Positions 26,556 through 60,835 are shown, numbered from the stretch's first letter. The stretch: DNA of 64,000 bases from an uncultured bacterium (GCA_964558395.1 CAZLDS010000009.1:6494-70493); one strand, 5' to 3'. Notes: generated by a model from the sequence alone, not told the origin. Numbers and translations: made by a program.

Positions 26556-29378
26556 TTAGACCTCGAGCCCGTAATTCTTCATCCGCGTTCGAAGCTGCGT
26601 CCGGCTGAGTCCGAGAAGTTTGCTTGCCTTCGACTTGTTGTACTTCGCCTGCTCGAGAGCTTGGAGGATGAGGGTCTTCTCCAGATCTGCCAGAGCAATT
26701 CCGCCAGCAGGGAGTTTGAACGCCTCGCCGCTTAGGGGTTGTGCCCCGGGCTGCTCCCGGAGCAAGAGCGATAGCTCCTGCAGGATCACGACCGCTCCCC
26801 GACAGAGGATCACCGCCCGTTCCATAACATTCTCCAACTCGCGAACGTTGCCCGGCCAATGGTAGTCGTTGAGCAGTTCCCTGGCTTCTGTGGATAGCCT
26901 GGTTACCTCCTTCCCAAGCTCTCGGCTGAACTTTTGGAGGAAGTGGATCGCCAAGGGGAGGAGGTCCTCTTTCCGCTCGCGTAATGGTGGCACGGAGATC
27001 GGGTAGACATTCAGGCGATAGTAAAGGTCCGGCCTGAAACTGCGGTCTGCCACTGCGTTAACCAAGTCGCGGTGTGTGGCCGTAATCAGCCGCACATCGA
27101 CTTTTAGGGTTTGGGTCCCGCCCACTCGCTCAAATTCCTGTTCTTGCAAAACCCGCAGAAGCTTGACCTGGACCTGGAGCGGCAGATCGCCGATCTCATC
27201 GAGAAAGATCGTGCCACCGTTCGCGAGCTCGAAACGTCCGATTTTCCTGGCGATCGCGCCCGTGAAGGCTCCTTTCTCATGGCCGAATAATTCACTCTCG
27301 ATGAGACCGGTGGGCAGCGCGGCGCAGTTCACCTTAATCAGCGGCCTGTCTTTGCGCTTGCTCAGATTGTGAATGGCCCGGGCGATCAGTTCCTTACCCG
27401 TCCCCGTTTCGCCGGTCAACAGCACGGTTGCCCCGGTCGCAGCAACCTGCTCGACTTTTTGTAGGACTTTCTTTATCGCCGGAGACATCCCGATGATTTC
27501 TTCAAAATTGTGTTCAGTTTTAAGTTCTTCCTGCAAATACACATTCTCGAGCTGCAATTTGTTGAGTTCGGCCTCGGCCTGCTTCCGTTCATTGATGTCC
27601 CGCAGAATGACGGTGTAGAATTTTTGCCCAGCCGCTTCTACTTGCGAGATGGTCCCTTCGATGGGAAACTCATGGCCATCGGCGCGTAAGGCAGTGAGGC
27701 TGGCGGGGATCCACCGGTAGGGCTTGGCCTGATCGCCCTGTTCGAGCGCCGTGACATGCTCGGTGAGGACGCGGCGGAGCGGGTCGGACAGGAACCGGCT
27801 CAATGGCTGATCGATCGCCGCTGCGGTGGGGCAGCGGAAGACATGTTCCGCAGCTCTGTTGAATAGTCTGATGCGCTGGTCGACGTTGATAGTGACAACG
27901 GCGTCCATAGCGGACTCTAGGATGCGAGCGAGCCGTTCCTCACTCTCTCGCAACGCCTCCTCGGCCCGCTTCCGGTCGGTGATATCTTGGACGGTCCCCT
28001 CGTAGTAAAGCACCGCGCCGCTTGGATCGCGGACAGCGCGCGCACTTTCCGAGATCCATATCGCACTGCCGTCTCTGCGATAAACCTGCGACTCTAGTCC
28101 CAACACAGCGTTCTGTTCCTGCAACAGACGGATGAAATCGGCACGGCGGGTGGGTTCTACATAGAGTTGTGGTCCGATATCAGTGAGATTCTCGACGAGT
28201 TCCTCGGGAGACTCGTACCCATAGATGCGCGCCAGTGCAGAATTGGCGCTGATGTACCGCCCATCTGGCGTGGTTTGGAAGATCCCCTCGACGGCATGCT
28301 CGAAAATGCTGCGATACTTCTCTTCGGCTTGCCGCAGCGCGGCTTCCGCCCGGGTGCGTTCCACGATTTCCCTTCTCAGAGTCTGGTTGGCGACCGTGAG
28401 TTCGGCCGTCCGTTCATCGACGCGGATCTCTAGTGAGTCGTGCGCCTGTTGGAGTGCCGCCTTGGACCGGGTGCGCTCAATCACCCGCCCGAGTTGCGTG
28501 CCGATGTGACCCATGACGTTCAATAATGGCTCGTCAGGCTCGAGGGCCTCGGCCGAGAAGAACTCGAGGACCGCCACCACTTCGGTTCCCACCAACACCG
28601 GGAAGCCGAAACCGGCCTTGACGCCAATATCCTTGGCCAACTCGGCCCGCGGAAAGTTCGGGTCCTTGGTCACATCGATAATCCACGCGGGCCTTCCAGT
28701 GGCCAAGACCCGCCCCGGCAGGCCCACTCCCGGGGCGAAGTGGGTCACCTCTGTCACCCTGCGGAACGTCTCAAATTGTTCCGGGTTCTCAAGATGCCAG
28801 ATGCCTGCGGGAACGAGTTCTCCGTCAGCGCGGATATACACGTCGCCGACTGGCCATCCTGTATGAGCACAGACCTGATCGAGGGTGTACTGGAGAACCT
28901 TCTCGGGGGTCGATGCCTCATTCGCCGCCACCGCGACTCTTTGGAGCAATTCCACGAACGCGGCCTTCTGATGTAGGGCCGCCTCCGACCGTCTGCGCTC
29001 GGCGACGTCACGTATAGCGCTCGAGATGAGGACTCCCTCCTCGGTCTCGAGGGGACTCAGGCTGATCTCAGCTGGAAACTCGCTCCCATCCTTACGCCGA
29101 GCGAAGAGATCCAGCCCAGAACCCATAGGGCGGACACGAGGATGGGTGGTGTAGGCCACGCGCTGGTGCGTGTGTTCTCCCCGGACGCGTTCGGGTACCA
29201 GGATCTCGACTGTCTCTCCGAGCAATTCCTCCCTGGAGTAGCCAAAAAGCCTCTCCGTTTGCTCGTTAACCAGGACGATATTCCCATACTGGTCGACGAC
29301 GACGACGGCGTCCGGCGCGGACTCGAAGACCTGCCGAAACCTATGCCCTGGCTCCCTTATCTCCTTATCTTTTTTCAT
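26556..29378 (-). CDS. Sigma54-dependent activator, PAS-GAF-PAS-PAS-AAA+-HTH (FhlA-like)
   Basis: [28 protein letters not shown], Fis-type HTH; three PAS/PAC repeats and a GAF domain; start ATG 29378 with GAGG RBS. Confidence 0.95.
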
Positions 29379-48981: not shown

Positions 48982-50197
48982 AGATTATCGGGATGTGGCC
49001 CCTCCGGGGACAGTGGATTTGCTCTATCGCTTGAGCGAAAAGGTCAAGGGGAAGAGCCTCCTCAACGTCAACTCAACCCGGTCCGGGGGCGGGGTGGCGG
49101 AGATTCTGAACCGCCTCGTCCCTTTGCTCGACGAACTAGGGGTGAAGGCGACGTGGGACGTCATCCAAGGTAGTGATGAATTCTTCGCAGTGACCAAAGG
49201 GTTTCACAACGCCCTGCAGGGGAACGGACAAGAAATCAGTGAACGGATGTACGAGGCGTATGTCGAGTGTAATCGCGAAAACGCCAAACGGATGCTTTTT
49301 GATGCAGACATGATCCTGATCCACGATCCTCAGCCGGCCGCCCTCGTTGACTTCGGCCCACGAGTCGGAAAGTGGGTCTGGCGGTGTCATCTCGACATCT
49401 CTGATCCGGCACGGCGCGTGTGGCGGTTCCTGCGAAACTACGTGGTGAAATATGATGCAGCCATCTTCTCCCTGCCCACCTTTGCGCAGAAGCTCCCGAT
49501 TCCTCAGTTCTTGGTTTACCCCTCTATCGATCCGTTGAGCGACAAGAATCGAGAGCTCAGCCGAAGGGAGGTCAACAAAATCCTAGACCGGTTGGGTGTT
49601 CCGCGGGACAAGTCGATCCTTTTGCAGGTCTCCCGTTTTGACCGATTCAAGGATTTCGTGGGGGTAATCCAGGCCTATCGGATTGTCAAGAGGCACAACG
49701 ATTGCCGCCTCATACTGGCGGGGGGTCCGGCGGCCGATGATCCGGAGGGCAAGATGGTCGTGGATGAAGTGAAAGAAGCCGCCGGCCAGGACCCGGATAT
49801 CCTTATCCTCGAGCTTCCCCCGGACTCAAACATCGAGATCAATGCCCTACAACGGGCGGCCACGATCGTCCTTCAAAAATCAATCAAAGAAGGCTTTGGC
49901 TTGACCGTGTCCGAGGCCATGTGGAAGGGGAAACCGGTCATCGGGGGTGACACCGGGGGGATTACAGTCCAGATCCTCTACTATCTCACCGGCTATACCG
50001 TCAGCTCGGTGGAGGGGGCGGCCTTCCGGATCCGGTATCTCCTGAACAACCCGCAGATCGCCCGGAAGATGGGCACGGACGCCAAGGAACACGTCCGGCG
50101 GAATTTCCTCATCACCCGCCATCTGACCGATTATCTGACGCTCATGGCTGCCCTCACCGACGGGGCGGAGAATTTGGACTTCCTTCCCTTTAGCTAG
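48965..50197 (+). CDS. treT: GT4 glycosyltransferase, TreT-type trehalose synthase
   Basis: NSTRSGGGVAEIL, IHDPQP, WRCHLD, QVSRFDRFK, QKSIKEGFGLTVSEAMWK. Confidence 0.88.
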   Translation: MPICLEDYRDVAPPGTVDLLYRLSEKVKGKSLLNVNSTRSGGGVAEILNRLVPLLDELGVKATWDVIQGSDEFFAVTKGFHNALQGNGQEISERMYEAYVECNRENAKRMLFDADMILIHDPQPAALVDFGPRVGKWVWRCHLDISDPARRVWRFLRNYVVKYDAAIFSLPTFAQKLPIPQFLVYPSIDPLSDKNRELSRREVNKILDRLGVPRDKSILLQVSRFDRFKDFVGVIQAYRIVKRHNDCRLILAGGPAADDPEGKMVVDEVKEAAGQDPDILILELPPDSNIEINALQRAATIVLQKSIKEGFGLTVSEAMWKGKPVIGGDTGGITVQILYYLTGYTVSSVEGAAFRIRYLLNNPQIARKMGTDAKEHVRRNFLITRHLTDYLTLMAALTDGAENLDFLPFS

Positions 50198-50500
50198 AAA
50201 CCCCCACATTTTCAGTGAGTTGCACGGCTTCCGTGGTGGGTTGCTGGCAAGTCACTGTCGCATCTATCCAGTTTGAAACATGGGTGACGGCGTCCCGCTC
50301 TTGCTTGGCTTCAGGGAACAGATAGCGTTCGGTGACACTGAGATCACTGTGCCCTAATAGCTTACGGATGGTTACTAAGTCCGCGCCATGTTCCAACGCC
50401 CGTGTAGCAAAGGTACGGCGCAAGTCGTGCGGGTGGAGGTTCACAATTCCCGCTCTCTTACATGCGCGGTCCCACGCTTTGTAAATGTCCTTGATGGGTT
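50190..50500 (-). pseudogene. Tyrosine integrase C-terminal fragment
   Basis: KAWDRACKRAGIVNLHPHDLRRTFATRALEHGADL..IRKLLGHSD...ERY; N-terminal part absent. Confidence 0.9.
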
Positions 50501-50634
50501 TAGACTCAACGCCTTTGGAATCCTCCGCAGAGAGATATTGGATAAAAGCAATAATTGACGTTCAAAGGACTGTACCAATTTGTCCCTTTCGGCCATGATA
50601 GCGATACCATCGCTTCTCACTCGAATCCTATATC

Positions 50635-51276
50635 TCACGGGTCCTCCCGATTCCGTTGGGACTCCACTGGCTCATCGAGATCGGACGAACTAAAGCTAAT
50701 GAGAATCAGAATCGTGTACTCATCGTATCTGGCCTTTCCGACACCTATAGGGACCTTGCCTACAAACGTACCGATCCGGCCTTCAAAGGCATAGATCTCT
50801 ACTTCGACGCGGCCCCGGTTGCGCACCGATTTATACAGGGCGATCTCGGGGAATGGAACCCCGAATACGGGAATCGGAAAGGCGGGGATGCCGAACAGCG
50901 TCGATGATTGGTCAACGCCGAGGACGTACGCGAAGACCTTTAGCTTCAGGTCTGACTCCGTCTGATCGGAGACAACTTTAACTCCATGTTCTTCGAGCCA
51001 GGTCATCACGAATGCCTTTGCAAAGGCCCGATCATCCGTGAGTGCAAACAGCTCGAGGGTAACGCGGCGTCCAATGAATCGCTGAACCTCGAGCTGGGCG
51101 ACTGCCCGCTGCAGCGACCGGACCAGTAACTGCTGTTCAAGGCTGGACCGTGCGGTCGTGGTCGCACGCACCGAGCTGTAACAGCCCGCACTCAAAAGCC
51201 AGCAAGCGATGGACCCCACGAGCAGTAGACTTGGCCCGATCCCAGGGTTTCGCTTACTGCGTAACTTCGTGCGCAT
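50635..51276 (-). CDS. Putative lipoprotein (DUF6655-like, tentative), element cargo
   Basis: Basic N-terminus, hydrophobic core, lipobox LSAG-C; start uncertain. Confidence 0.65.
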   Translation of the reverse strand: MRTKLRSKRNPGIGPSLLLVGSIACWLLSAGCYSSVRATTTARSSLEQQLLVRSLQRAVAQLEVQRFIGRRVTLELFALTDDRAFAKAFVMTWLEEHGVKVVSDQTESDLKLKVFAYVLGVDQSSTLFGIPAFPIPVFGVPFPEIALYKSVRNRGRVEVEIYAFEGRIGTFVGKVPIGVGKARYDEYTILILISFSSSDLDEPVESQRNREDP

Positions 51277-51754
51277 CAGCCACTCGGTAGGCCTGAAAAG
51301 AAAGGTACCCGTTGCCGGTCGATGTGTGTAACTACAGTACCACACCCGATTATACCTCATCCCAACTCTCGGGATAGCCTCCTTTGGTTGTTGCCGGTGT
51401 TACGGGTTTCGCAGACGGCCCTGCTTCATGGAGGTACCGCGACAAACCGCCTGAGAAGTTGGTGCATTCGGTGAAGCAGTTCGGCAGGGTTTGCGTATTC
51501 CTTCTCAAGTAGTGCACTCCGTAATGGTGAATTCATTCGTCAGTTCCTTGAGGCCCCAGTCGGCCCATTTCATACGCTAAATTTTCTGATAGGATAAACC
51601 TTTCATTTGTCGAAACGCTTCAAATAGTTCACGGGCTGACACTGAATCATCCCCATTATAGTAAGCGAGAATTTCCGATAGTGTTCAAGGACTTGTTGTG
51701 GAGATAATCTGTCCTTAACCTTTTGGAAGTTCATCCATCATAATCCCGGCTCTG

Positions 51755-51952
51755 TTAAGCCGATTTTTCGATATAGTCTCGCAAGTCTTGCAGTCTGAAC
51801 CGTAATGTGCCGCCGACCTTGCCATAGGGAATTTTTTTGTCTCGCGTCAGGCGGCGCAGGGTGACCTCGCTACACTTGAGGAAATCCATTGCTTGGCGAA
51901 AGTCCAAGTATTCCCACCTCCAAGGAACCTCATAATTTTCCCTTTTGACCAT
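51755..51952 (-). CDS. Excisionase-like helix-turn-helix protein
   Basis: YLDFRQAMDFLKCSEVTLRRL...IPYGKVGGTLRF..QDLRDYI; strong RBS. Confidence 0.88.
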   Translation of the reverse strand: MVKRENYEVPWRWEYLDFRQAMDFLKCSEVTLRRLTRDKKIPYGKVGGTLRFRLQDLRDYIEKSA

Positions 51953-52205
51953 GCTTCCTCACCTCCCCCCAAAAGAGAACGGGGGGCCAACAGCCTGTGT
52001 AAGGCATCGGCCCCCCGTTCAAAAGGCACTTATTAAGTTTCAAAGATCATACCCCAAGCGACATCGCCGTGTGTCTGAAAAGACGAGAGCCGCCACAATT
52101 TCAACACCTTGTGACGGCTCCCTAAATGGCTACTAAGAGAATTTGGACTTCCTTCCCTTTAGTTGACTTCCCTCGCTAGGTACGATATAGACTGACTCTT
52201 GCTGC

Positions 52206-52283
52206 GGGGCCGTAGTGTAGCCTGGTTAACACGCCGGCCTGTCAAGCCGGAGATCGCGGGTTCAAGTCCCGTCGGCCCCGCCA
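52206..52283 (+). tRNA. tRNA-Asp (GUC)
   Basis: GGGGCCG/CGGCCCC acceptor stem, CCGGC-CTGTCAA-GCCGG, GGTTCAAGTCC, CCA. Confidence 0.97.
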
Positions 52284-52371: not shown

Positions 52372-53247
52372 TTAGTACGACATGGCGAAGCCGGCGGTGA
52401 CGACGCCTGTAAAGTTGTCACCCGCGTTGATCGCTTTCGTGCTGTTCCCGAGGAAAAAGAAGTCCCCCTTCACATAGGCCTCCCACGAGCCGTAGTCGGC
52501 CGGGATAAAAGCCAGAGGCACGCTCGCCTTGATGCCGAGGTCAAAGTAGCCGAACGTGGAATCCTCACCGGTGTTGGGGTTTTCATAGTAATCCCCGAGG
52601 CTTAAACCCAGTGTCAGTGGGAGAGAGAGTGTCACCGGGTATTTCTCGCCCTCAAACACGGTGTAGCTCGGCTCGAGGTCCAGCTGAAAGTACGTCCCGA
52701 GGTCGGGTCCAGTCGCCCCGGCACCCTGGATCTCGAACGCGACCAGGATGTGAGGTGACATGGCAAAGGGCCCCAGCAGGTCGCTATCATCATAGCTGAG
52801 CCCAAACGCGATCTCCTGTGTTGAGCCGAAGGAATCGTTGGGGCTGGTGTAGAGGGTATAGACCGTATCTAGGCTAAAATCTTCAAACAACCCGAAATTC
52901 AGCCCGGCGATAAAGTCGAACTCGTACCACGCCGTCGGATCGGCCGTCCCGGGTGATACCGACTGGATGCTGTTCCAGATCCCCAGCGTCGCACCCGCGC
53001 TCGTGAGTCCACTCGAGCCTTCATACAGGTTAAAGTTGACATCGGCCCACGGCTGGCCAATGAAGCCGTTTTTCGACTGCAGGAGCCCGCGGAAGAAATA
53101 CGCGCTGGTGAAATCCATCCCGGCGTCGAACGAGACCTTGCCCGTGTTGGGTTCCTCGGCTGCGATTGCCGGCGTGCCGCATAAGAGAGTGGCCATCGCC
53201 AGCGCGCTGGCCACGAGAGCTATCCGTCCCCGCGTTTCTTGTCCCAT
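52372..53247 (-). CDS. Outer-membrane beta-barrel/porin-like protein (TorF-like, tentative)
   Basis: Signal peptide ending AIA-AEE; SAYFFRG motif; alternating aromatic/Gly strands; C-terminal Tyr; AGGAGG RBS. Confidence 0.75.
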   Translation of the reverse strand: MGQETRGRIALVASALAMATLLCGTPAIAAEEPNTGKVSFDAGMDFTSAYFFRGLLQSKNGFIGQPWADVNFNLYEGSSGLTSAGATLGIWNSIQSVSPGTADPTAWYEFDFIAGLNFGLFEDFSLDTVYTLYTSPNDSFGSTQEIAFGLSYDDSDLLGPFAMSPHILVAFEIQGAGATGPDLGTYFQLDLEPSYTVFEGEKYPVTLSLPLTLGLSLGDYYENPNTGEDSTFGYFDLGIKASVPLAFIPADYGSWEAYVKGDFFFLGNSTKAINAGDNFTGVVTAGFAMSY

Positions 53248-53289
53248 CTGGCTACCTCCTTTTCTTACGGGTGGCGACGTTCTACGTAG

Positions 53290-53357
53290 AGAAAAAGAAA
53301 AGGGCGCCTCGTATCTGAGGCGCCCTTGCCTCCCCTTCCCCCTGCGCCGTTGCAGGG
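53290..53357 (-). promoter_or_regulatory. ANTAR-target RNA element (twin hexaloop hairpins overlapping an intrinsic terminator)
   Basis: P1 CCCUGC-AACGGC-GCAGGG; P2 GAGGC-AAGGGC-GCCUC (A1/G4 loops); P2 overlaps terminator AAGGGCGCCUC-agauac-GAGGCGCCCUU-UUCUUUUU. Confidence 0.9.
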
Positions 53358-53376
53358 GCGGTGCCTTACTCTGCGG

Positions 53377-53991
53377 TCAACGCTCCGCTCGCGCGGGCTT
53401 CGCAGCCGTCGAAACGTCCGCGACGGCTTCGGCAACCAGAATGGCCTCGGCAATCTGCTGCATGGGGGTCCGGGTCTTCATGCTTTGCCGTTGGATGGAG
53501 TGAAAGGCCTCCGCTTCGGTGATCCCCTGCCGGGCCATGAGCAGCCCTTTGGCCCGTTCGATCTTCTTGCGGGCCTCGAGGGCTGTTCGCATATGCTGGT
53601 TATCCTTCCAGAGCGCCATGAACTCCCGGAACCTGGCGATGGCCAACTCGATGGCTGGCTGCAGCTCTTGTCCACGCACCGGCTTGACCAGGCAGGCCAT
53701 CACGCCTGCCTGGGTGGCCTGGCGGATCATCGTGGCGTCGAGCTGGCGGGCCAGGAGGATGACGGGGGTCGGGGCCTGCTTCAAGATATGCGTTGCCGCG
53801 GCCATTCCGTTCGCTCCCTCCAAGTCCGCCGCCAGAAAGAGCAAGTCCGGTTGGAGCGTCTGGACGAGCTGCAATCCCTCGTCGATATCCCTCGCCTCCC
53901 CAACCACCGCGTAACCCAGCTCCCTCAGCGTCTCCTTGAGGAAGGTCCGCGCATACGCGCTGTCCTCGATGAGCAGCAGGCGATAGGACAC
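53377..53991 (-). CDS. Pseudo-receiver/ANTAR antitermination regulator
   Basis: ANTAR motif RKKIERAKGLLM..QGITEAEAF..IQRQSM; receiver fold LLLIED...PDLLFLAA...LVKP with the phospho-Asp replaced by Ala. Confidence 0.93.
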   Translation of the reverse strand: MSYRLLLIEDSAYARTFLKETLRELGYAVVGEARDIDEGLQLVQTLQPDLLFLAADLEGANGMAAATHILKQAPTPVILLARQLDATMIRQATQAGVMACLVKPVRGQELQPAIELAIARFREFMALWKDNQHMRTALEARKKIERAKGLLMARQGITEAEAFHSIQRQSMKTRTPMQQIAEAILVAEAVADVSTAAKPARAER

Positions 53992-53995
53992 GGTC

Positions 53996-55612
53996 TTACT
54001 TCCCCGAACCCTTGGCTGGCGCCGGGGGGGGGTGGGTCGCTTCCTGGGCCCCAGGGATCTGACCCGCCACCTTCTTGAGGATTCCTTCCGGATCCATCTT
54101 GGCGAAGTCGAGGAACTCTCTGAGGAGGGGGAGCGCTGCCCCGGCACTGAGGAAGGCATTCACCACCCGACCGATGCCGGATCCATCCTGGCCTGGTCCC
54201 TCGCCGTTCCCTCCACCCCAGCCGTGCACGTCCAACACCTTGATGCTGTCGATCTGTCGGGCCGGCGCCATCATCTCGCCTAGCATCTGCGGAGCCTGGT
54301 CGATAAAGCGCAGCAGGACATCCCGCTGAATGACTTTCTCTTCCAGGTTGTTCTCGCTCTGCACCATTTTGAGGCGGGCGGCTGCGTCCGCCTCTCCCTC
54401 CCGCTGCTTGGAGAGGGCCAGCCGTTCAATGGCGCGTGCCTTTTGCTCGGCGACCTCGTGTTCCCGGAGGGCCTGGATGAGGGCGATCGCCTTCTGTCGC
54501 TCGGCCGCCGCTCGCTCCGCCACCGTGATCACCTCCTGGGCCGCCTGCTCCTTGCTGGCGTCGGCCTCCAAGCGGCGCTTTTCCTCTTCGATCCGCTGCC
54601 GCTCCTTAACCAGAATCGCGATTTCTTTGGCGCGCTTGGTCTCCTCGACCACGCGCTCCTTGTCGATCTCGGCGGTCTCTCGAAGCTCCGTCTGTTGCAT
54701 CAGATAGGCCTCACGGCGGATCTCTGCCTCGCGGATCGTTTTTTCCTGGGCGATCTCTGCCTCGCGGACTGCCCGCTGCTTGGCGATCTCCGCCTCTCGA
54801 GACCGTCGCTCCTGCTCGTACCGGTACTCTTCCGTATCGGCTTTTTGCAGAGCCCGGTTCGTCTCCACCTGGCGAATCTGCTCGGCCTCGGCGAATTCCC
54901 GGTCCTGGTCGAGCGACAGCTTGAGCTTGACCGCCTCCACGTCTTTCCGCTTGATGGCCACCTCGGTGTTCCGTTCAATCTCGTTCCGCTCCCGGTTGCG
55001 TTGCGAGACCTGGGCGGAAATCTGGCGGAGGCCCTCCGCGTCAAAGATGTTGTTGGGATCGAGCTGAGCGCGGTCGGTCTGGTCGAGGTGAAAGAGCGAG
55101 ACATCCTCGAGGCCGAGCCCGTTGAGCATCAACGGTTCCTGCAGGTCCCCCATGACGGCCAGGGCGAACCCACGGCGGTTCTCGTGCATCTGTTCCATCT
55201 CCATCCGCGCTGCCGCCGATCGCAGTGCCGACACCAACTTCTCCTCCACCAGTGACTGGATCCCCTCGGCGCTGAAGGACTTATCCCCCAAGCTGCGGGA
55301 GGCCCGTTCGATGCTCTCGGCGTCGGCGGTGATCTTCACGTAGAACTCGGTCCCGATGTCGACCCGCAGCCGGTCCTTGGTGATAAAGGCCTCCTTCTTC
55401 GCCTTGAAGACTTGAAGCTTGAACGTCTCGAGGGAGATCCACTGAATGCTTTGGACCCAGGGGAGCACCACGGCACCGCCGTCGATGACCACCTTCTTGC
55501 CGCCCAAGCCGGTCCGGATGAAGGCCATATTGACCGGCGTCTTCACGTACCAGGCGGTGAACGCCGCGATGGCAATCCCTGCTAGGATTAAAAGTAAAAT
55601 AATCCATCCCAT
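53996..55612 (-). CDS. Flotillin (SPFH/band-7 family) protein
   Basis: N-terminal TM, AFIRTGLGG, ITKDRLRVD, NNIFDAEG, EA-rich coiled coil, IDSIKV. Confidence 0.93.
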   Translation of the reverse strand: MGWIILLLILAGIAIAAFTAWYVKTPVNMAFIRTGLGGKKVVIDGGAVVLPWVQSIQWISLETFKLQVFKAKKEAFITKDRLRVDIGTEFYVKITADAESIERASRSLGDKSFSAEGIQSLVEEKLVSALRSAAARMEMEQMHENRRGFALAVMGDLQEPLMLNGLGLEDVSLFHLDQTDRAQLDPNNIFDAEGLRQISAQVSQRNRERNEIERNTEVAIKRKDVEAVKLKLSLDQDREFAEAEQIRQVETNRALQKADTEEYRYEQERRSREAEIAKQRAVREAEIAQEKTIREAEIRREAYLMQQTELRETAEIDKERVVEETKRAKEIAILVKERQRIEEEKRRLEADASKEQAAQEVITVAERAAAERQKAIALIQALREHEVAEQKARAIERLALSKQREGEADAAARLKMVQSENNLEEKVIQRDVLLRFIDQAPQMLGEMMAPARQIDSIKVLDVHGWGGGNGEGPGQDGSGIGRVVNAFLSAGAALPLLREFLDFAKMDPEGILKKVAGQIPGAQEATHPPPAPAKGSGK

Positions 55613-55642
55613 TGTCGCTCCTCCTCGCTTTCCCCCTCGGGA

Positions 55643-57505
55643 TCAGCGCTCCGCCGTGACCACGGCCTCTTCGATGCCGTACATGTACAGCAGGTTCTCC
55701 ACCGTTTCCCGGAACTGGTCCGGGTTCCCCTTCTTGAAAGAGAAGGAATCGTCGCTAAAACGTGGGGTGTGTTCATACATCTCATTAAAGTCCCGAGGCG
55801 TGTTGGGATAGTCGTGACAGAGGCGCTGCCACATGTCCCGCAAAACTCGCCTGTCCACGCCCCGCACCACGATGCGGAACGGCTGTTCCTTGGTGGCCGG
55901 CCCCGCCGTAGCGACGGGAGCGGCAGCCGCCCGGAACGGCTCGGCCCGGCCGGCACCAGGTGGCGTGCGGGACACGCCAGGACGGGGTGGGATCCGCGTC
56001 CCTCCTCCGGCGGGGATGAAAGCCGCGGCAGGACGGCGCGTGACCTCTTCCGGTGCGGGCTCGGGCTTCCTTCCCCCGGGAGCTGCGGCCATCCCAGGCG
56101 CAGTGGCGCCCAGTCGCATGCGGCCTGAGGACGCGATCTGGAAGTCGGGATACGCTAACAATCCGTGCTCGTTAATGTCCAGACCCTCCATCTCCTCCTC
56201 GGCGGGAACCCGAATGCCCAGGAGGCCCTTGAGGAGTCCCCAGCCGACAAGAGAAGCCGGGAAGATGAACGCGCCCACTGCGAGCACCCCGATCAACTGT
56301 GCTTGGAAGAGCCCCGACCCGCCGCCAAAGAAGAGTCCGTTGCCGGTGGTACCGGGGCTAAATACGTCCTGGGCGAACAGGCCGACCGCGATGGTGCCCC
56401 AGGCGCCGCAGGTCAGGTGAGCGGAAACCGCCCCAACCGGGTCGTCCAGCCTGATGCGATCGAAAAACAGCACCGAGAGGACCACGAGGATCCCAGCCAC
56501 AAGGCCAATCGCCAGCGAGCTCCCCAGGCTGACAAAGGCACAGGGGGCCGTGATGGCGACCAGGCCGGCCACGCCGCCGTTCAGCCCCATCGTCAGATCC
56601 GGCTTGCCCAAGAGGACCCACGCTGTGAAGGTGGCGGCAATCACCCCCGCGGCCGCGGCGGTGTTTGTGGTGGCGGCGATGTGGCCGATAGCCCCCGCAT
56701 CCGCCGCCATGGTACTGCCCGGGTTAAACCCGAACCACCCGAACCACAGTATAAAGACGCCCAGTGTGGCCGAGGTGAGGCTGTGGCCGGGAATCGGGTT
56801 GATGCGCCCATCCTTTGTAAATTTGCCGATGCGGGGCCCCAGCATGATGGCCCCAGCAAGTGCCGCCCACCCGCCGACCGAGTGGACCACGGTCGAGCCG
56901 GCAAAGTCCCACATCCCGCGTTCGGCAAGCCAACCGCCCCCCCAGATCCAGTGGCCCGTGATCGGATAGAGCAGGCCTGCCATGAGAAAGGAAAAGAGGA
57001 AGAAGCTACTGAACTTGATCCGCTCGGCGACGGCTCCCGAGACGATCGTCGCCGCGGTACCGGCAAAGACCATCTGGAAAAGGAATTTCGCTTCCAAGGG
57101 CACGCCGGTCCAGCTAATGGCGCTATAGACGCCTTGGTAGGCATCTCCGGTGGCCGGGCTGTTGTCCGCGCCGCTCAGAAACCACAGTCCTTTCAGGCCC
57201 ATAAACCACGAGCCGTCTCCAAACATGATGCCCCAGCCCACGACCAGAAAGCCGATGGCTGTGATGGCGTACACCACAAAATTCTTCGCGAGAATATTGA
57301 CGGTGTTCTTGGCGCGGGAAAAACCCGACTCGAGCAGGGCGAACCCCGCGGCCATGAACATGACGAGAAAAGCGGTGAGCAGGGTCCACACGGTGTCAAT
57401 GGCCACCTTGGATGCGGCCTCTTCGGCGGCAAAGGCGACCCCTGGGAGAAGAATCATCTTGCATGCTACCAGTCCAACGGTGCGTGCCCCTTTCCTCCAA
57501 GTCAC
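55643..57505 (-). CDS. amtB: Ammonium transporter (Amt) with about 165-aa C-terminal extension
   Basis: MAAGFALLESG, SGAVAER, DFAGSTVVH, WFGWFGFN, DDPVGAVSAH, EGLDINEHG..AYP; start GTG 57505 with GGGAGG RBS. Confidence 0.95.
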   Translation of the reverse strand: MTWRKGARTVGLVACKMILLPGVAFAAEEAASKVAIDTVWTLLTAFLVMFMAAGFALLESGFSRAKNTVNILAKNFVVYAITAIGFLVVGWGIMFGDGSWFMGLKGLWFLSGADNSPATGDAYQGVYSAISWTGVPLEAKFLFQMVFAGTAATIVSGAVAERIKFSSFFLFSFLMAGLLYPITGHWIWGGGWLAERGMWDFAGSTVVHSVGGWAALAGAIMLGPRIGKFTKDGRINPIPGHSLTSATLGVFILWFGWFGFNPGSTMAADAGAIGHIAATTNTAAAAGVIAATFTAWVLLGKPDLTMGLNGGVAGLVAITAPCAFVSLGSSLAIGLVAGILVVLSVLFFDRIRLDDPVGAVSAHLTCGAWGTIAVGLFAQDVFSPGTTGNGLFFGGGSGLFQAQLIGVLAVGAFIFPASLVGWGLLKGLLGIRVPAEEEMEGLDINEHGLLAYPDFQIASSGRMRLGATAPGMAAAPGGRKPEPAPEEVTRRPAAAFIPAGGGTRIPPRPGVSRTPPGAGRAEPFRAAAAPVATAGPATKEQPFRIVVRGVDRRVLRDMWQRLCHDYPNTPRDFNEMYEHTPRFSDDSFSFKKGNPDQFRETVENLLYMYGIEEAVVTAER

Positions 57506-57590
57506 GTTTTGTCCCTCCCTTCCGAGACGTCTTTGGGGGAAAATACAGGTCTCCAGCTGTCGCGTTTTACCAAGGATTTGTAAATGGATG

Positions 57591-57741
57591 AGCATGCAGC
57601 ATGCCAGTCGAGGTACGGAATCGTAACCCGCTGACAATGCAGGGAAAGTTGACCAAAGGGGGGGAGCACGATGGGAGGTTCATCGCTTAAAAAGAGGGCA
57701 GAAAGTTGGCCTCTGGGCGCGGGCTGCTTACGGCATAAGCA
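57591..57741 (-). promoter_or_regulatory. Sigma54 promoter of the amt operon with NtrC-like upstream sites
   Basis: TGGCATGCTGCATGCT (57606 to 57591, GG-N10-GC); palindrome TGCTTA-N5-TAAGCA (57725-57741); CGC-N11-GCA (57684-57700). Confidence 0.7.
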
Positions 57742-57802: not shown

Positions 57803-57890
57803 GATTTCGGATTGCGAATTTCGAATTTCGGATTGAAAGGCAAGCGTATGTTTGGAAAATCCGAAATCCGCAATCCCAAATTCGAAATAT
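57803..57890. repeat. Inverted pair of heptamer tandem-repeat arrays
   Basis: ATTTCGG-ATTGCGA-ATTTCGA-ATTTCGG facing AATCCGA-AATCCGC-AATCCCA-AATTCGA. Confidence 0.75.
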
Positions 57891-60696: not shown

Positions 60697-60835
60697 AAAT
60701 TTTGAAATTCGAATTTCGAATTTGGTAGGTCACCGGACTTCCGACGTCGGACCTGGGACGTTACAGCGAATTGCGGATTTCGGTTTTTTGAACTTCGGAC
60801 ATCGGACTTCGGACATCGTATCTCGGACCCTGGAC
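60697..60835. repeat. Heptamer tandem-repeat cluster between convergent genes
   Basis: AATTTTG/AAATTCG/AATTTCG and ACTTCGG/ACATCGG runs. Confidence 0.7.

Follow-up and report, generated by a model that had tools for sequence, protein, structure and literature searches.

Antitermination of nitrogen genes by ANTAR proteins is already established. In the accessible part of Ramesh et al. 2012 (PMC3369931), the ANTAR substrate is described as a pair of hairpins, each with a hexaloop that has A as its first and G as its fourth base; formation of the second hairpin competes with that of a terminator, and such RNAs are associated with PII, Amt, urea, nitrate/nitrite and glutamine synthetase (GS) genes. 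According to the available portion of Ueki & Lovley 2010 (PMC2995071), the GnfK/GnfR pair of Geobacter sulfurreducens acts on nitrogen genes including glnK and amtB, with RpoN-dependent expression, and GnfR binds RNA only when phosphorylated by GnfK. Here we describe a locus at positions 52,372-57,741, on the minus strand, of a 64,000-nucleotide stretch of DNA (GCA_964558395.1 CAZLDS010000009.1:6494-70493; hereafter the window) from an NC10/Methylomirabilales genome (3.27 Mb, 98% complete), which we compared with 251 genomes of the phylum Methylomirabilota. It carries, in this order, a sigma-54-type promoter, an amt gene with a C-terminal tail, a flotillin gene, a receiver-ANTAR gene, a two-hexaloop ANTAR RNA overlapping a terminator, and a gene for a TorF-like porin. 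The locus consists of two separable modules, not of one sensing machine: a regulator lacking the phospho-acceptor aspartate together with its RNA, and a tightly co-inherited pair of tailed amt and flotillin genes.

These elements, with their order and coordinates, had been put forward in an earlier reading of the window (the original prediction), and all were located again by reading of the open reading frames (ORFs), by a Pfam scan and by RNA folding. The unit is as tight as had been said, with 30 nucleotides between amt and flotillin and 4 between flotillin and the ANTAR gene, the latter being followed by a spacer of 87 nucleotides. The remark that neither glnK/PII nor a histidine kinase lies in or beside the unit also holds, since no such gene was found among the seven proteins scanned with Pfam at 50.6-59.3 kb or among the remaining ORFs of the 49-62 kb region, which were read by eye. 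Both PII genes of the genome are located on another contig (C11).

An aspartate-less receiver-ANTAR regulator and its RNA

The description of the regulator as a pseudo-receiver protein proved correct. In an ungapped alignment with Rv1626/PdtaR (1s8n, E 1e-37) and CheY, an alanine stands opposite the phospho-acceptor aspartate; the conserved threonine (Thr87) is also replaced by alanine, and the acidic pair (ED) and the lysine are kept. PdtaR/Rv1626, which is phosphorylatable, is the closest solved relative by sequence, AmiR reaching only E 7e-7. The aspartate is absent from all 30 best homologues of the phylum, which mostly read AVGLPDxDG at this place; one of them (L030) comes from an unpublished genome (G034), and the finding stands without it. 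Among the best 120 homologues worldwide, the acceptor position is occupied by Ala in 30, Gly in 2 and Asp in 88, and the Asp-less proteins are all found within the top 51. The Asp-bearing homologues are labelled PdtaR/NasT, the few named sources including Chloroflexi, Actinobacteria and Thermodesulfobacteriota, and several homologues carry the JGI label "NasT". This distribution points to the aspartate having been lost in a clade that spans the phylum, as a derived trait and not as something particular to the window locus.

No cognate kinase gene accompanies this clade: the upstream gene, identified in 26 of the 30 loci, is a non-kinase gene in each of these. An AmiC/NasS-type ligand-binding partner gene is likewise missing from the operon, the neighbours being flotillin, Amt, GS or porin genes, and a literature search returned no paper combining NasT, ANTAR, receiver domain and aspartate. 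The genome encodes a second ANTAR regulator outside the window (C63:8222-11060 in genome G000), which keeps the Asp, Thr and Lys residues. Its gene overlaps that of a 739-residue membrane protein, in which a GAF-like region and histidine-kinase motifs were read, the two looking like a canonical two-component pair; RNA targets of this second regulator were not found with the covariance model built here.

The RNA behind the regulator gene behaves in folding as had been claimed for a twin-hairpin/terminator ANTAR element. The nascent RNA up to position 53316 folds as two hexaloop hairpins (P1 and P2), and the complete RNA as P1 plus the terminator (-44.9 kcal/mol, z = -4.65). The P2 loop and 3' arm double as the 5' arm of the terminator, the stem proper of which runs from 53327 to 53300 with the T-run after it, so that P2 and the terminator are mutually exclusive. 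In both loops of the window RNA, the first base is A and the fourth is G; a G in the fourth place of the P2 loop is shared by all of 10 aligned relatives, and some copies in relatives begin their loop with G. The core of the RNA, GGCAAGGGCGCC, is identical to the experimentally bound GnfR site CAGGCAANGGCGCC, given as CAGGCAA(N)GGCGCC for Geobacter in the accessible part of PMC2995071.

A covariance model seeded with 10 copies was searched against the window and 39 further loci, 40 sources in all, and gave 21 matches. The matches outside the seed precede PII-amt, porin and nirA-like genes, a gene for a nitrate/nitrite transporter of the major facilitator superfamily and a urea-binding protein gene, the products other than PII, Amt and porin being named by reading their N-termini. 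In the alignment of the 21 sequences, which was fitted to the model, 83.9% of the cells are paired and double changes are seen in 9 of the 12 pairs, a level attained by none of 500 shuffles; registers slid along the alignment score far lower. In the host genome, the covariance model found no other copy among the 150 candidates scored out of about 3600 first-look candidates, and our own pattern scan gave 9 matches, 8 of which were judged from their weak hairpins to be chance matches, and no further copy. In Rfam, the RNA has no match, only the neighbouring tRNA-Asp reaching the threshold. By comparison with the substrate described in the accessible part of Ramesh et al. 2012, the window RNA shows no difference in kind, and the supplementary tables of that paper may already list NC10 matches.

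A co-inherited pair of ammonium transporter and flotillin

The amt gene begins with a GTG at 57505, preceded by the ribosome-binding site GGGAGGG, and its product scores above the cut-off of TIGR00836. It provides the single PF00909 match of the genome and is thus the sole ammonium transporter gene. The pore positions His, Asp, Trp and Phe, which we take to correspond to the residues known under E. coli numbering, are invariant in 16 orthologues. Because it is the only Amt of the genome and its Amt residues are invariant among orthologues, the tailed Amt is a working transporter rather than a dedicated sensor.

The additional C-terminal domain that had been noticed on this protein is real: about 165 residues extend beyond the Amt domain, and they comprise a Pro/Arg-rich linker and a domain of about 82 residues (C-terminal domain, CTD) with a confident ferredoxin-like AlphaFold2 model (pLDDT 87, pTM 0.77). 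The tail has no Pfam or NCBIfam match, and a Foldseek search of the CTD against the PDB returned only generic matches to the ferredoxin fold, all of them above E 1e-3. A hidden Markov model search of 1.84 billion representatives retrieved 80 proteins at E<=1e-3. Twenty of them have at least 300 residues, and the ten that were scanned are all Amt proteins with the CTD near the C-terminal end; the shorter matches that were read look like gene fragments. A fused PII was considered for the tail and ruled out, the CTD profile matching that of one PII with an hhalign probability of 0.13%; in Foldseek, PII-like chains were met only at E>0.1, with a TM-score of about 0.45. As to PII itself, its gene adjoins amt in five relatives (L022, L023, L024, L063 and L064), and the pairing of amt with glnK is not seen at the window locus.

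The CTD is present in 8 of the 251 genomes, and flotillin orthologues of at least 65% identity are confined to exactly those 8 genomes, all remaining flotillin matches of the phylum being at most 44% identical. The window flotillin itself scores far under the cut-off of the FloT equivalog. In 8 of 9 genome loci the flotillin gene lies directly 3' of the tailed amt gene, the exception being a paralogous tailed Amt of genome G032. This paralogue (L025, G032:C41, 7519-9360) has no adjoining flotillin gene; its transporter part is 43-46% identical and its tail about 80% identical, and the tail is therefore far better conserved than the transporter to which it is attached. Eight metagenome loci complete the picture: five have a full flotillin gene after the tailed amt, and the other three are a duplicate contig, a locus cut by the contig edge and a locus with flotillin fragments only. 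These metagenome loci include lineages in which the Amt is 36% but the flotillin 62% identical, with PII upstream and glnA downstream of the pair. The tailed amt and the flotillin gene therefore form a tightly co-inherited two-gene module.

Most likely, the tail serves to dock the trimeric Amt onto the flotillin, a contact suggested by their co-occurrence. A complex prediction of flotillin with the Amt tail gave a score of 0.00, which, obtained without controls, speaks neither for nor against binding. A literature search did not find a bacterial Amt-flotillin pair described.

Separable modules behind one promoter

The coordinates of the features discussed here are collected in Table 1.

Table 1. 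Features of the amt-flotillin-ANTAR locus, listed along the minus strand (window positions)
Feature	Coordinates	Strand	Evidence
Dyad TGCTTA-N5-TAAGCA, about 120 nucleotides upstream of the -24 element	57725..57741	-	read from sequence
Sigma-54-type -24/-12 promoter, TGGCAT-N5-ATGCT	57591..57606	-	one mismatch to TGGCAY-N5-TTGCW
amt, 620 amino acids, signal-like N-terminus, full Amt domain	55643..57505	-	Pfam PF00909 5e-118, profile 1-399/399
Pro/Arg/Ala-rich tail linker; motifs RRPAAAF, GG..RTPPRP and R.PPG..EP kept in orthologues	55892..56155	-	alignments
Amt C-terminal domain (CTD), about 82 amino acids, ferredoxin-like beta-alpha-(alpha)-beta-beta-alpha-beta	55646..55891	-	AlphaFold2 model
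Flotillin, 538 amino acids: N-terminal hydrophobic segment, SPFH/Band_7, coiled coil, Flot domain	53996..55612	-	PF01145 1e-13, PF15975 9e-18
Receiver-ANTAR regulator, 204 amino acids, GTG start at 53991	53377..53991	-	PF00072 6e-19, PF03861 6e-20
ANTAR hairpin P1: 7-bp stem, hexaloop AACGGC	53339..53358	-	fold, covariation
ANTAR hairpin P2: 5-bp stem, hexaloop AAGGGC	53317..53332	-	fold of truncated RNA
Intrinsic terminator: 11-bp stem, 6-nucleotide loop, T-run	53290..53327	-	-23.5 kcal/mol, z = -5.07
Outer-membrane beta-barrel gene, TorF/Gcw_chp-like, 291 amino acids, signal peptide	52372..53247	-	weak family matches, Atlas look-alikes

The two modules are found apart in both directions. When considering the 30 regulator loci, the same-strand gene upstream of the regulator is amt in 13, glnA in 7 (6 without G034), flotillin behind amt in 4, a porin-like gene behind glnA or amt-PII in 2, and nothing recognised in 4 (two of which have less than 450 nucleotides of flank). 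The regulator is accordingly the distal gene of an amt or glnA operon in 24 of the 30 loci, and 26 of the 30 regulator genes are in loci devoid of tail or flotillin. This gene order suggests that the regulator closes classical nitrogen-limitation operons and gates whatever comes next. In same-genus genomes lacking tail and flotillin, the order is glnA-ANTAR-small ORF-RNA-PII-amt. The small ORF, located between the regulator gene and the RNA in three such loci (L031, L032 and L030), encodes a Cys-rich, zinc-ribbon-like protein, which is a possible partner of the regulator.

Conversely, the nine genome loci with a tailed amt include four with the regulator after flotillin, four with the porin gene and just three with all four genes; the conservation of the four-gene order in relatives, named beforehand as a point on which the original prediction could fail, is therefore limited. 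Five of the 9 loci and 4 of the 8 genomes with tail and flotillin are devoid of the regulator, and with the window protein as query no regulator orthologue was found in G032, G035, G045 and G228 (completeness 94, 98, 70 and 94%, respectively). Two loci bear what appear to be deletions of the ANTAR gene. In G032 (L026, G032:C95, 4895-5060), a clean gap of about 650 nucleotides extends from just after the regulator start codon into P2, so that P1/P2 are gone; the end of the flotillin gene is left intact, as are terminator and porin gene. In G045 (L023, G045:C15, about 2700-2900), only the 3' end of the regulator gene and the whole RNA are left, before PII. That each module occurs without the other argues against tail and flotillin being the obligatory switch of the regulator, although a lineage-specific interaction between them may exist. 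The claimed linkage of amt and ANTAR genes thus stands and is wider than was supposed, whereas the role of switch attributed to the Amt tail and flotillin finds poor support in the phyletic patterns.

The promoter proposed on the basis of a GG-N10-GC motif is present (TGGCATGCTGCATGCT at 57606..57591). By itself, this motif is not above chance within the window (3 matches versus 2.9 expected); TGGCATG-N4-[ACG]TGCT is, however, kept in six orthologous loci (the window, L019, L020, L021, L026 and L022), with a variable spacer. In five of these loci, the window included, it lies between -107 and -119 relative to the start codon, and in L022 it is further upstream. An rpoN gene and genes for more than 20 sigma-54 activators are present in the genome, and the promoter would be under nitrogen-limitation control. 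The dyad upstream of it is a candidate site for a sigma-54 activator; L019 and L020 have a related TGC-N11-GCA dyad in the corresponding position. A sigma-54 activator domain (about 26997-27497, minus strand), one of 27 matches in the genome, is encoded within the window itself, in an open frame of 947 codons some 25 kb away from the operon.

At the other end of the unit, the beta-barrel gene expected after the RNA was confirmed as an ORF (53247..52372) with a signal peptide and a resemblance to TorF/Gcw_chp that remains below the cut-offs (33 bits versus 47 for TIGR02001; 18 versus 24 for PF09694); look-alike clusters of the Atlas carry Gcw_chp in part. The gene begins 43 nucleotides past the T-run of the terminator, and a promoter scan of this interval gave no sigma-70-like match.

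The surroundings of the operon have features of their own. A tRNA-Asp gene (52206-52283, plus strand) adjoins the porin end of the unit, and after it come an excisionase-like HTH_17 ORF (51755-51952), a lipoprotein-like ORF (50635-51360) and an ORF of 84 codons (50190-50444), unscanned and read by eye as the C-terminal piece of an integrase. In L019, L021 and L026, a conserved gene for a 410-residue protein, read as a glycosyltransferase, follows the porin gene on the opposite strand. As the relatives have this conserved gene after the porin instead, the block 50190-52283 has the look of a remnant left by integration at the tRNA gene. On the promoter side, inverted repeats resembling repetitive extragenic palindromes and made of TTCGAAATTCG/CGGATTTCG units are found in the divergent amt-matE spacer (57804-57888) and again 2.9 kb apart from it (60699-60816); a comparable repeat-like stretch was read by eye in L019, at the upstream end of the region before its amt gene.

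Switching of the regulator and comparison with known systems

We consider it moderately probable that the locus comprises a sigma-54-driven, phosphorylation-independent feed-forward antitermination circuit beside a new Amt-flotillin pair, the two separable modules being served by one promoter. Under nitrogen limitation, a sigma-54 activator would switch the operon on, and Amt, flotillin and the regulator would be produced. Transcripts would stop at the terminator until the regulator, presumably active constitutively and in a dose-dependent manner, has accumulated enough to bind P1/P2 and block formation of the terminator. Because read-through would need enough ANTAR protein on P1/P2, the porin would be co-expressed only upon sustained promoter activity, with a feed-forward delay. 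Independently of this, the Amt tail would dock the transporter trimer to a flotillin assembly, which may organise or restrain the transporter in the membrane.

Several points weigh against this scheme. The constitutive activity of the Asp-less receiver is assumed. Asp independence is known from two ANTAR proteins, AmiR and NasT, and each of these has a partner protein that holds it, such that the window regulator may have a partner too. The porin gene of G032 sits behind a bare terminator with no regulator, and the porin may therefore have another expression route. The fitting of the covariation alignment to the model favours structure, and the sole ground for the contact between tail and flotillin is their co-occurrence.

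The first of these points leads to the strongest alternative, unlikely in our view but to be taken seriously, in which the Asp-less regulator would be switched by a nitrogen-status partner general to the phylum, be it PII (GlnB/GlnK), GS, the core of Amt, or 2-oxoglutarate/glutamine, with tail and flotillin as bystanders. Such a partner would fit a clade that is phylum-wide and embedded in amt/glnA/PII clusters, with PII genes as direct targets in L022, L023, L031 and L032, and AmiC/AmiR and NasS/NasT offer precedents. In Bacillus, TnrA forms complexes with GlnK-AmtB and with feedback-inhibited GS. Nevertheless, direct evidence for any partner is absent, no AmiC/NasS-type binding protein is encoded in the operons, and shared NtrC-type control accounts just as well for the adjacency to amt or glnA.

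A more speculative version, which we hold to be improbable, would make the Methylomirabilota Amt itself the sensory partner of the Asp-less regulator, by analogy with AmiC for AmiR, tail and flotillin forming a holding platform in the window lineage. If this were true, the transport state of Amt would decide the read-through of nitrogen-scavenging operons, and such a transporter-gated RNA antiterminator would constitute a signalling route so far undescribed.

Slightly more doubtful again is the model of the original prediction, in which Amt would act as a transceptor, its flotillin-scaffolded tail holding or releasing the ANTAR protein according to ammonium flux and so gating the porin. The small gaps between genes that read as co-transcribed and the frequent amt or amt-flotillin neighbourhood of the clade are in keeping with it; the lack of both phospho-site and kinase makes a protein partner plausible, and the known Asp-independent ANTAR proteins have theirs encoded next door. 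However, this model is at odds with the loci in which tail and flotillin do without the regulator, with the clean deletion in G032 that spares flotillin, terminator and porin, with the large majority of regulator genes situated away from tail and flotillin (seven of them after glnA), and with a sole Amt whose invariant residues are those of a working transporter.

Finally, phosphorylation of the receiver by an orphan kinase at another residue, such as the Asp two positions past the lost site (AAD), appears very improbable: the window protein and its closest relatives do have an Asp at +2 (AADLEG, AVDLKE, AVDLQG) and the acidic pair and Lys are retained, but most of the clade has Gly there (AVGLPD), and so does a homologue as close as 80% identity, Thr87 is lost as well in the window protein, and no kinase is linked where the upstream gene was identified.

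Antitermination circuit and Amt-flotillin pair each include a part that we did not find in the searchable literature: on the one hand, a clade of Asp-less receiver-ANTAR proteins with no AmiC/NasS-type partner gene, ending amt or glnA operons throughout the phylum; on the other hand, a flotillin co-inherited with an ammonium transporter that bears a new fused domain. The former prompts one to ask by what route nitrogen status is conveyed to an RNA-binding regulator in the absence of phosphorylation. The latter is a rare case of a bacterial flotillin with an identifiable, genetically defined client, which makes flotillin function testable. NC10 bacteria are nitrite-dependent methane oxidisers, and the control of their nitrogen uptake is of ecological interest.

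Pairs of SPFH proteins or flotillins with membrane clients are known from HflK/C-FtsH and NfeD-flotillin, and the window flotillin resembles them in that its gene accompanies that of a single membrane client, with strict co-occurrence of the two. An Amt sensor fused to a signalling domain is known as well, the Amt-histidine kinase of Kuenenia. The window Amt similarly bears a C-terminal cytoplasmic extension; unlike that of Kuenenia, this extension comprises neither a kinase nor another known signalling domain, and has no profile similarity to PII. The Amt-flotillin pair also parallels a link known from plants: Arabidopsis AMT1;3 shows partial co-localisation with Flot1, which is also partly required for the removal of this transporter in response to ammonium (reviewed in PMC8644385). 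In contrast to AMT1;3-Flot1, the bacterial pair is a two-gene module with a dedicated domain fused to the Amt, and the contact between its products is a predicted one.

The receiver-like domain of the window regulator is devoid of the acceptor Asp and, like those of AmiR and NasT, would not be phosphorylated, but no gene for a partner with a periplasmic-binding-protein fold adjoins it, unlike in AmiC/AmiR and NasS/NasT. To GnfR there is a resemblance in layout: both are receiver-ANTAR proteins behind a sigma-54-type promoter, and both have an RNA site that overlaps an intrinsic terminator (GAGGCAAGGGCGCC in the window; CAGGCAA(N)GGCGCC in Geobacter, as far as the accessible text of PMC2995071 goes). 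They differ in that the phospho-Asp is an Ala and no kinase is linked in the window, and in that the regulator gene is inside the amt operon, directly before its own target. The circuit that we propose would thus be a kinase-less version of the feed-forward cascade from GnfM to GnfR in Geobacter.

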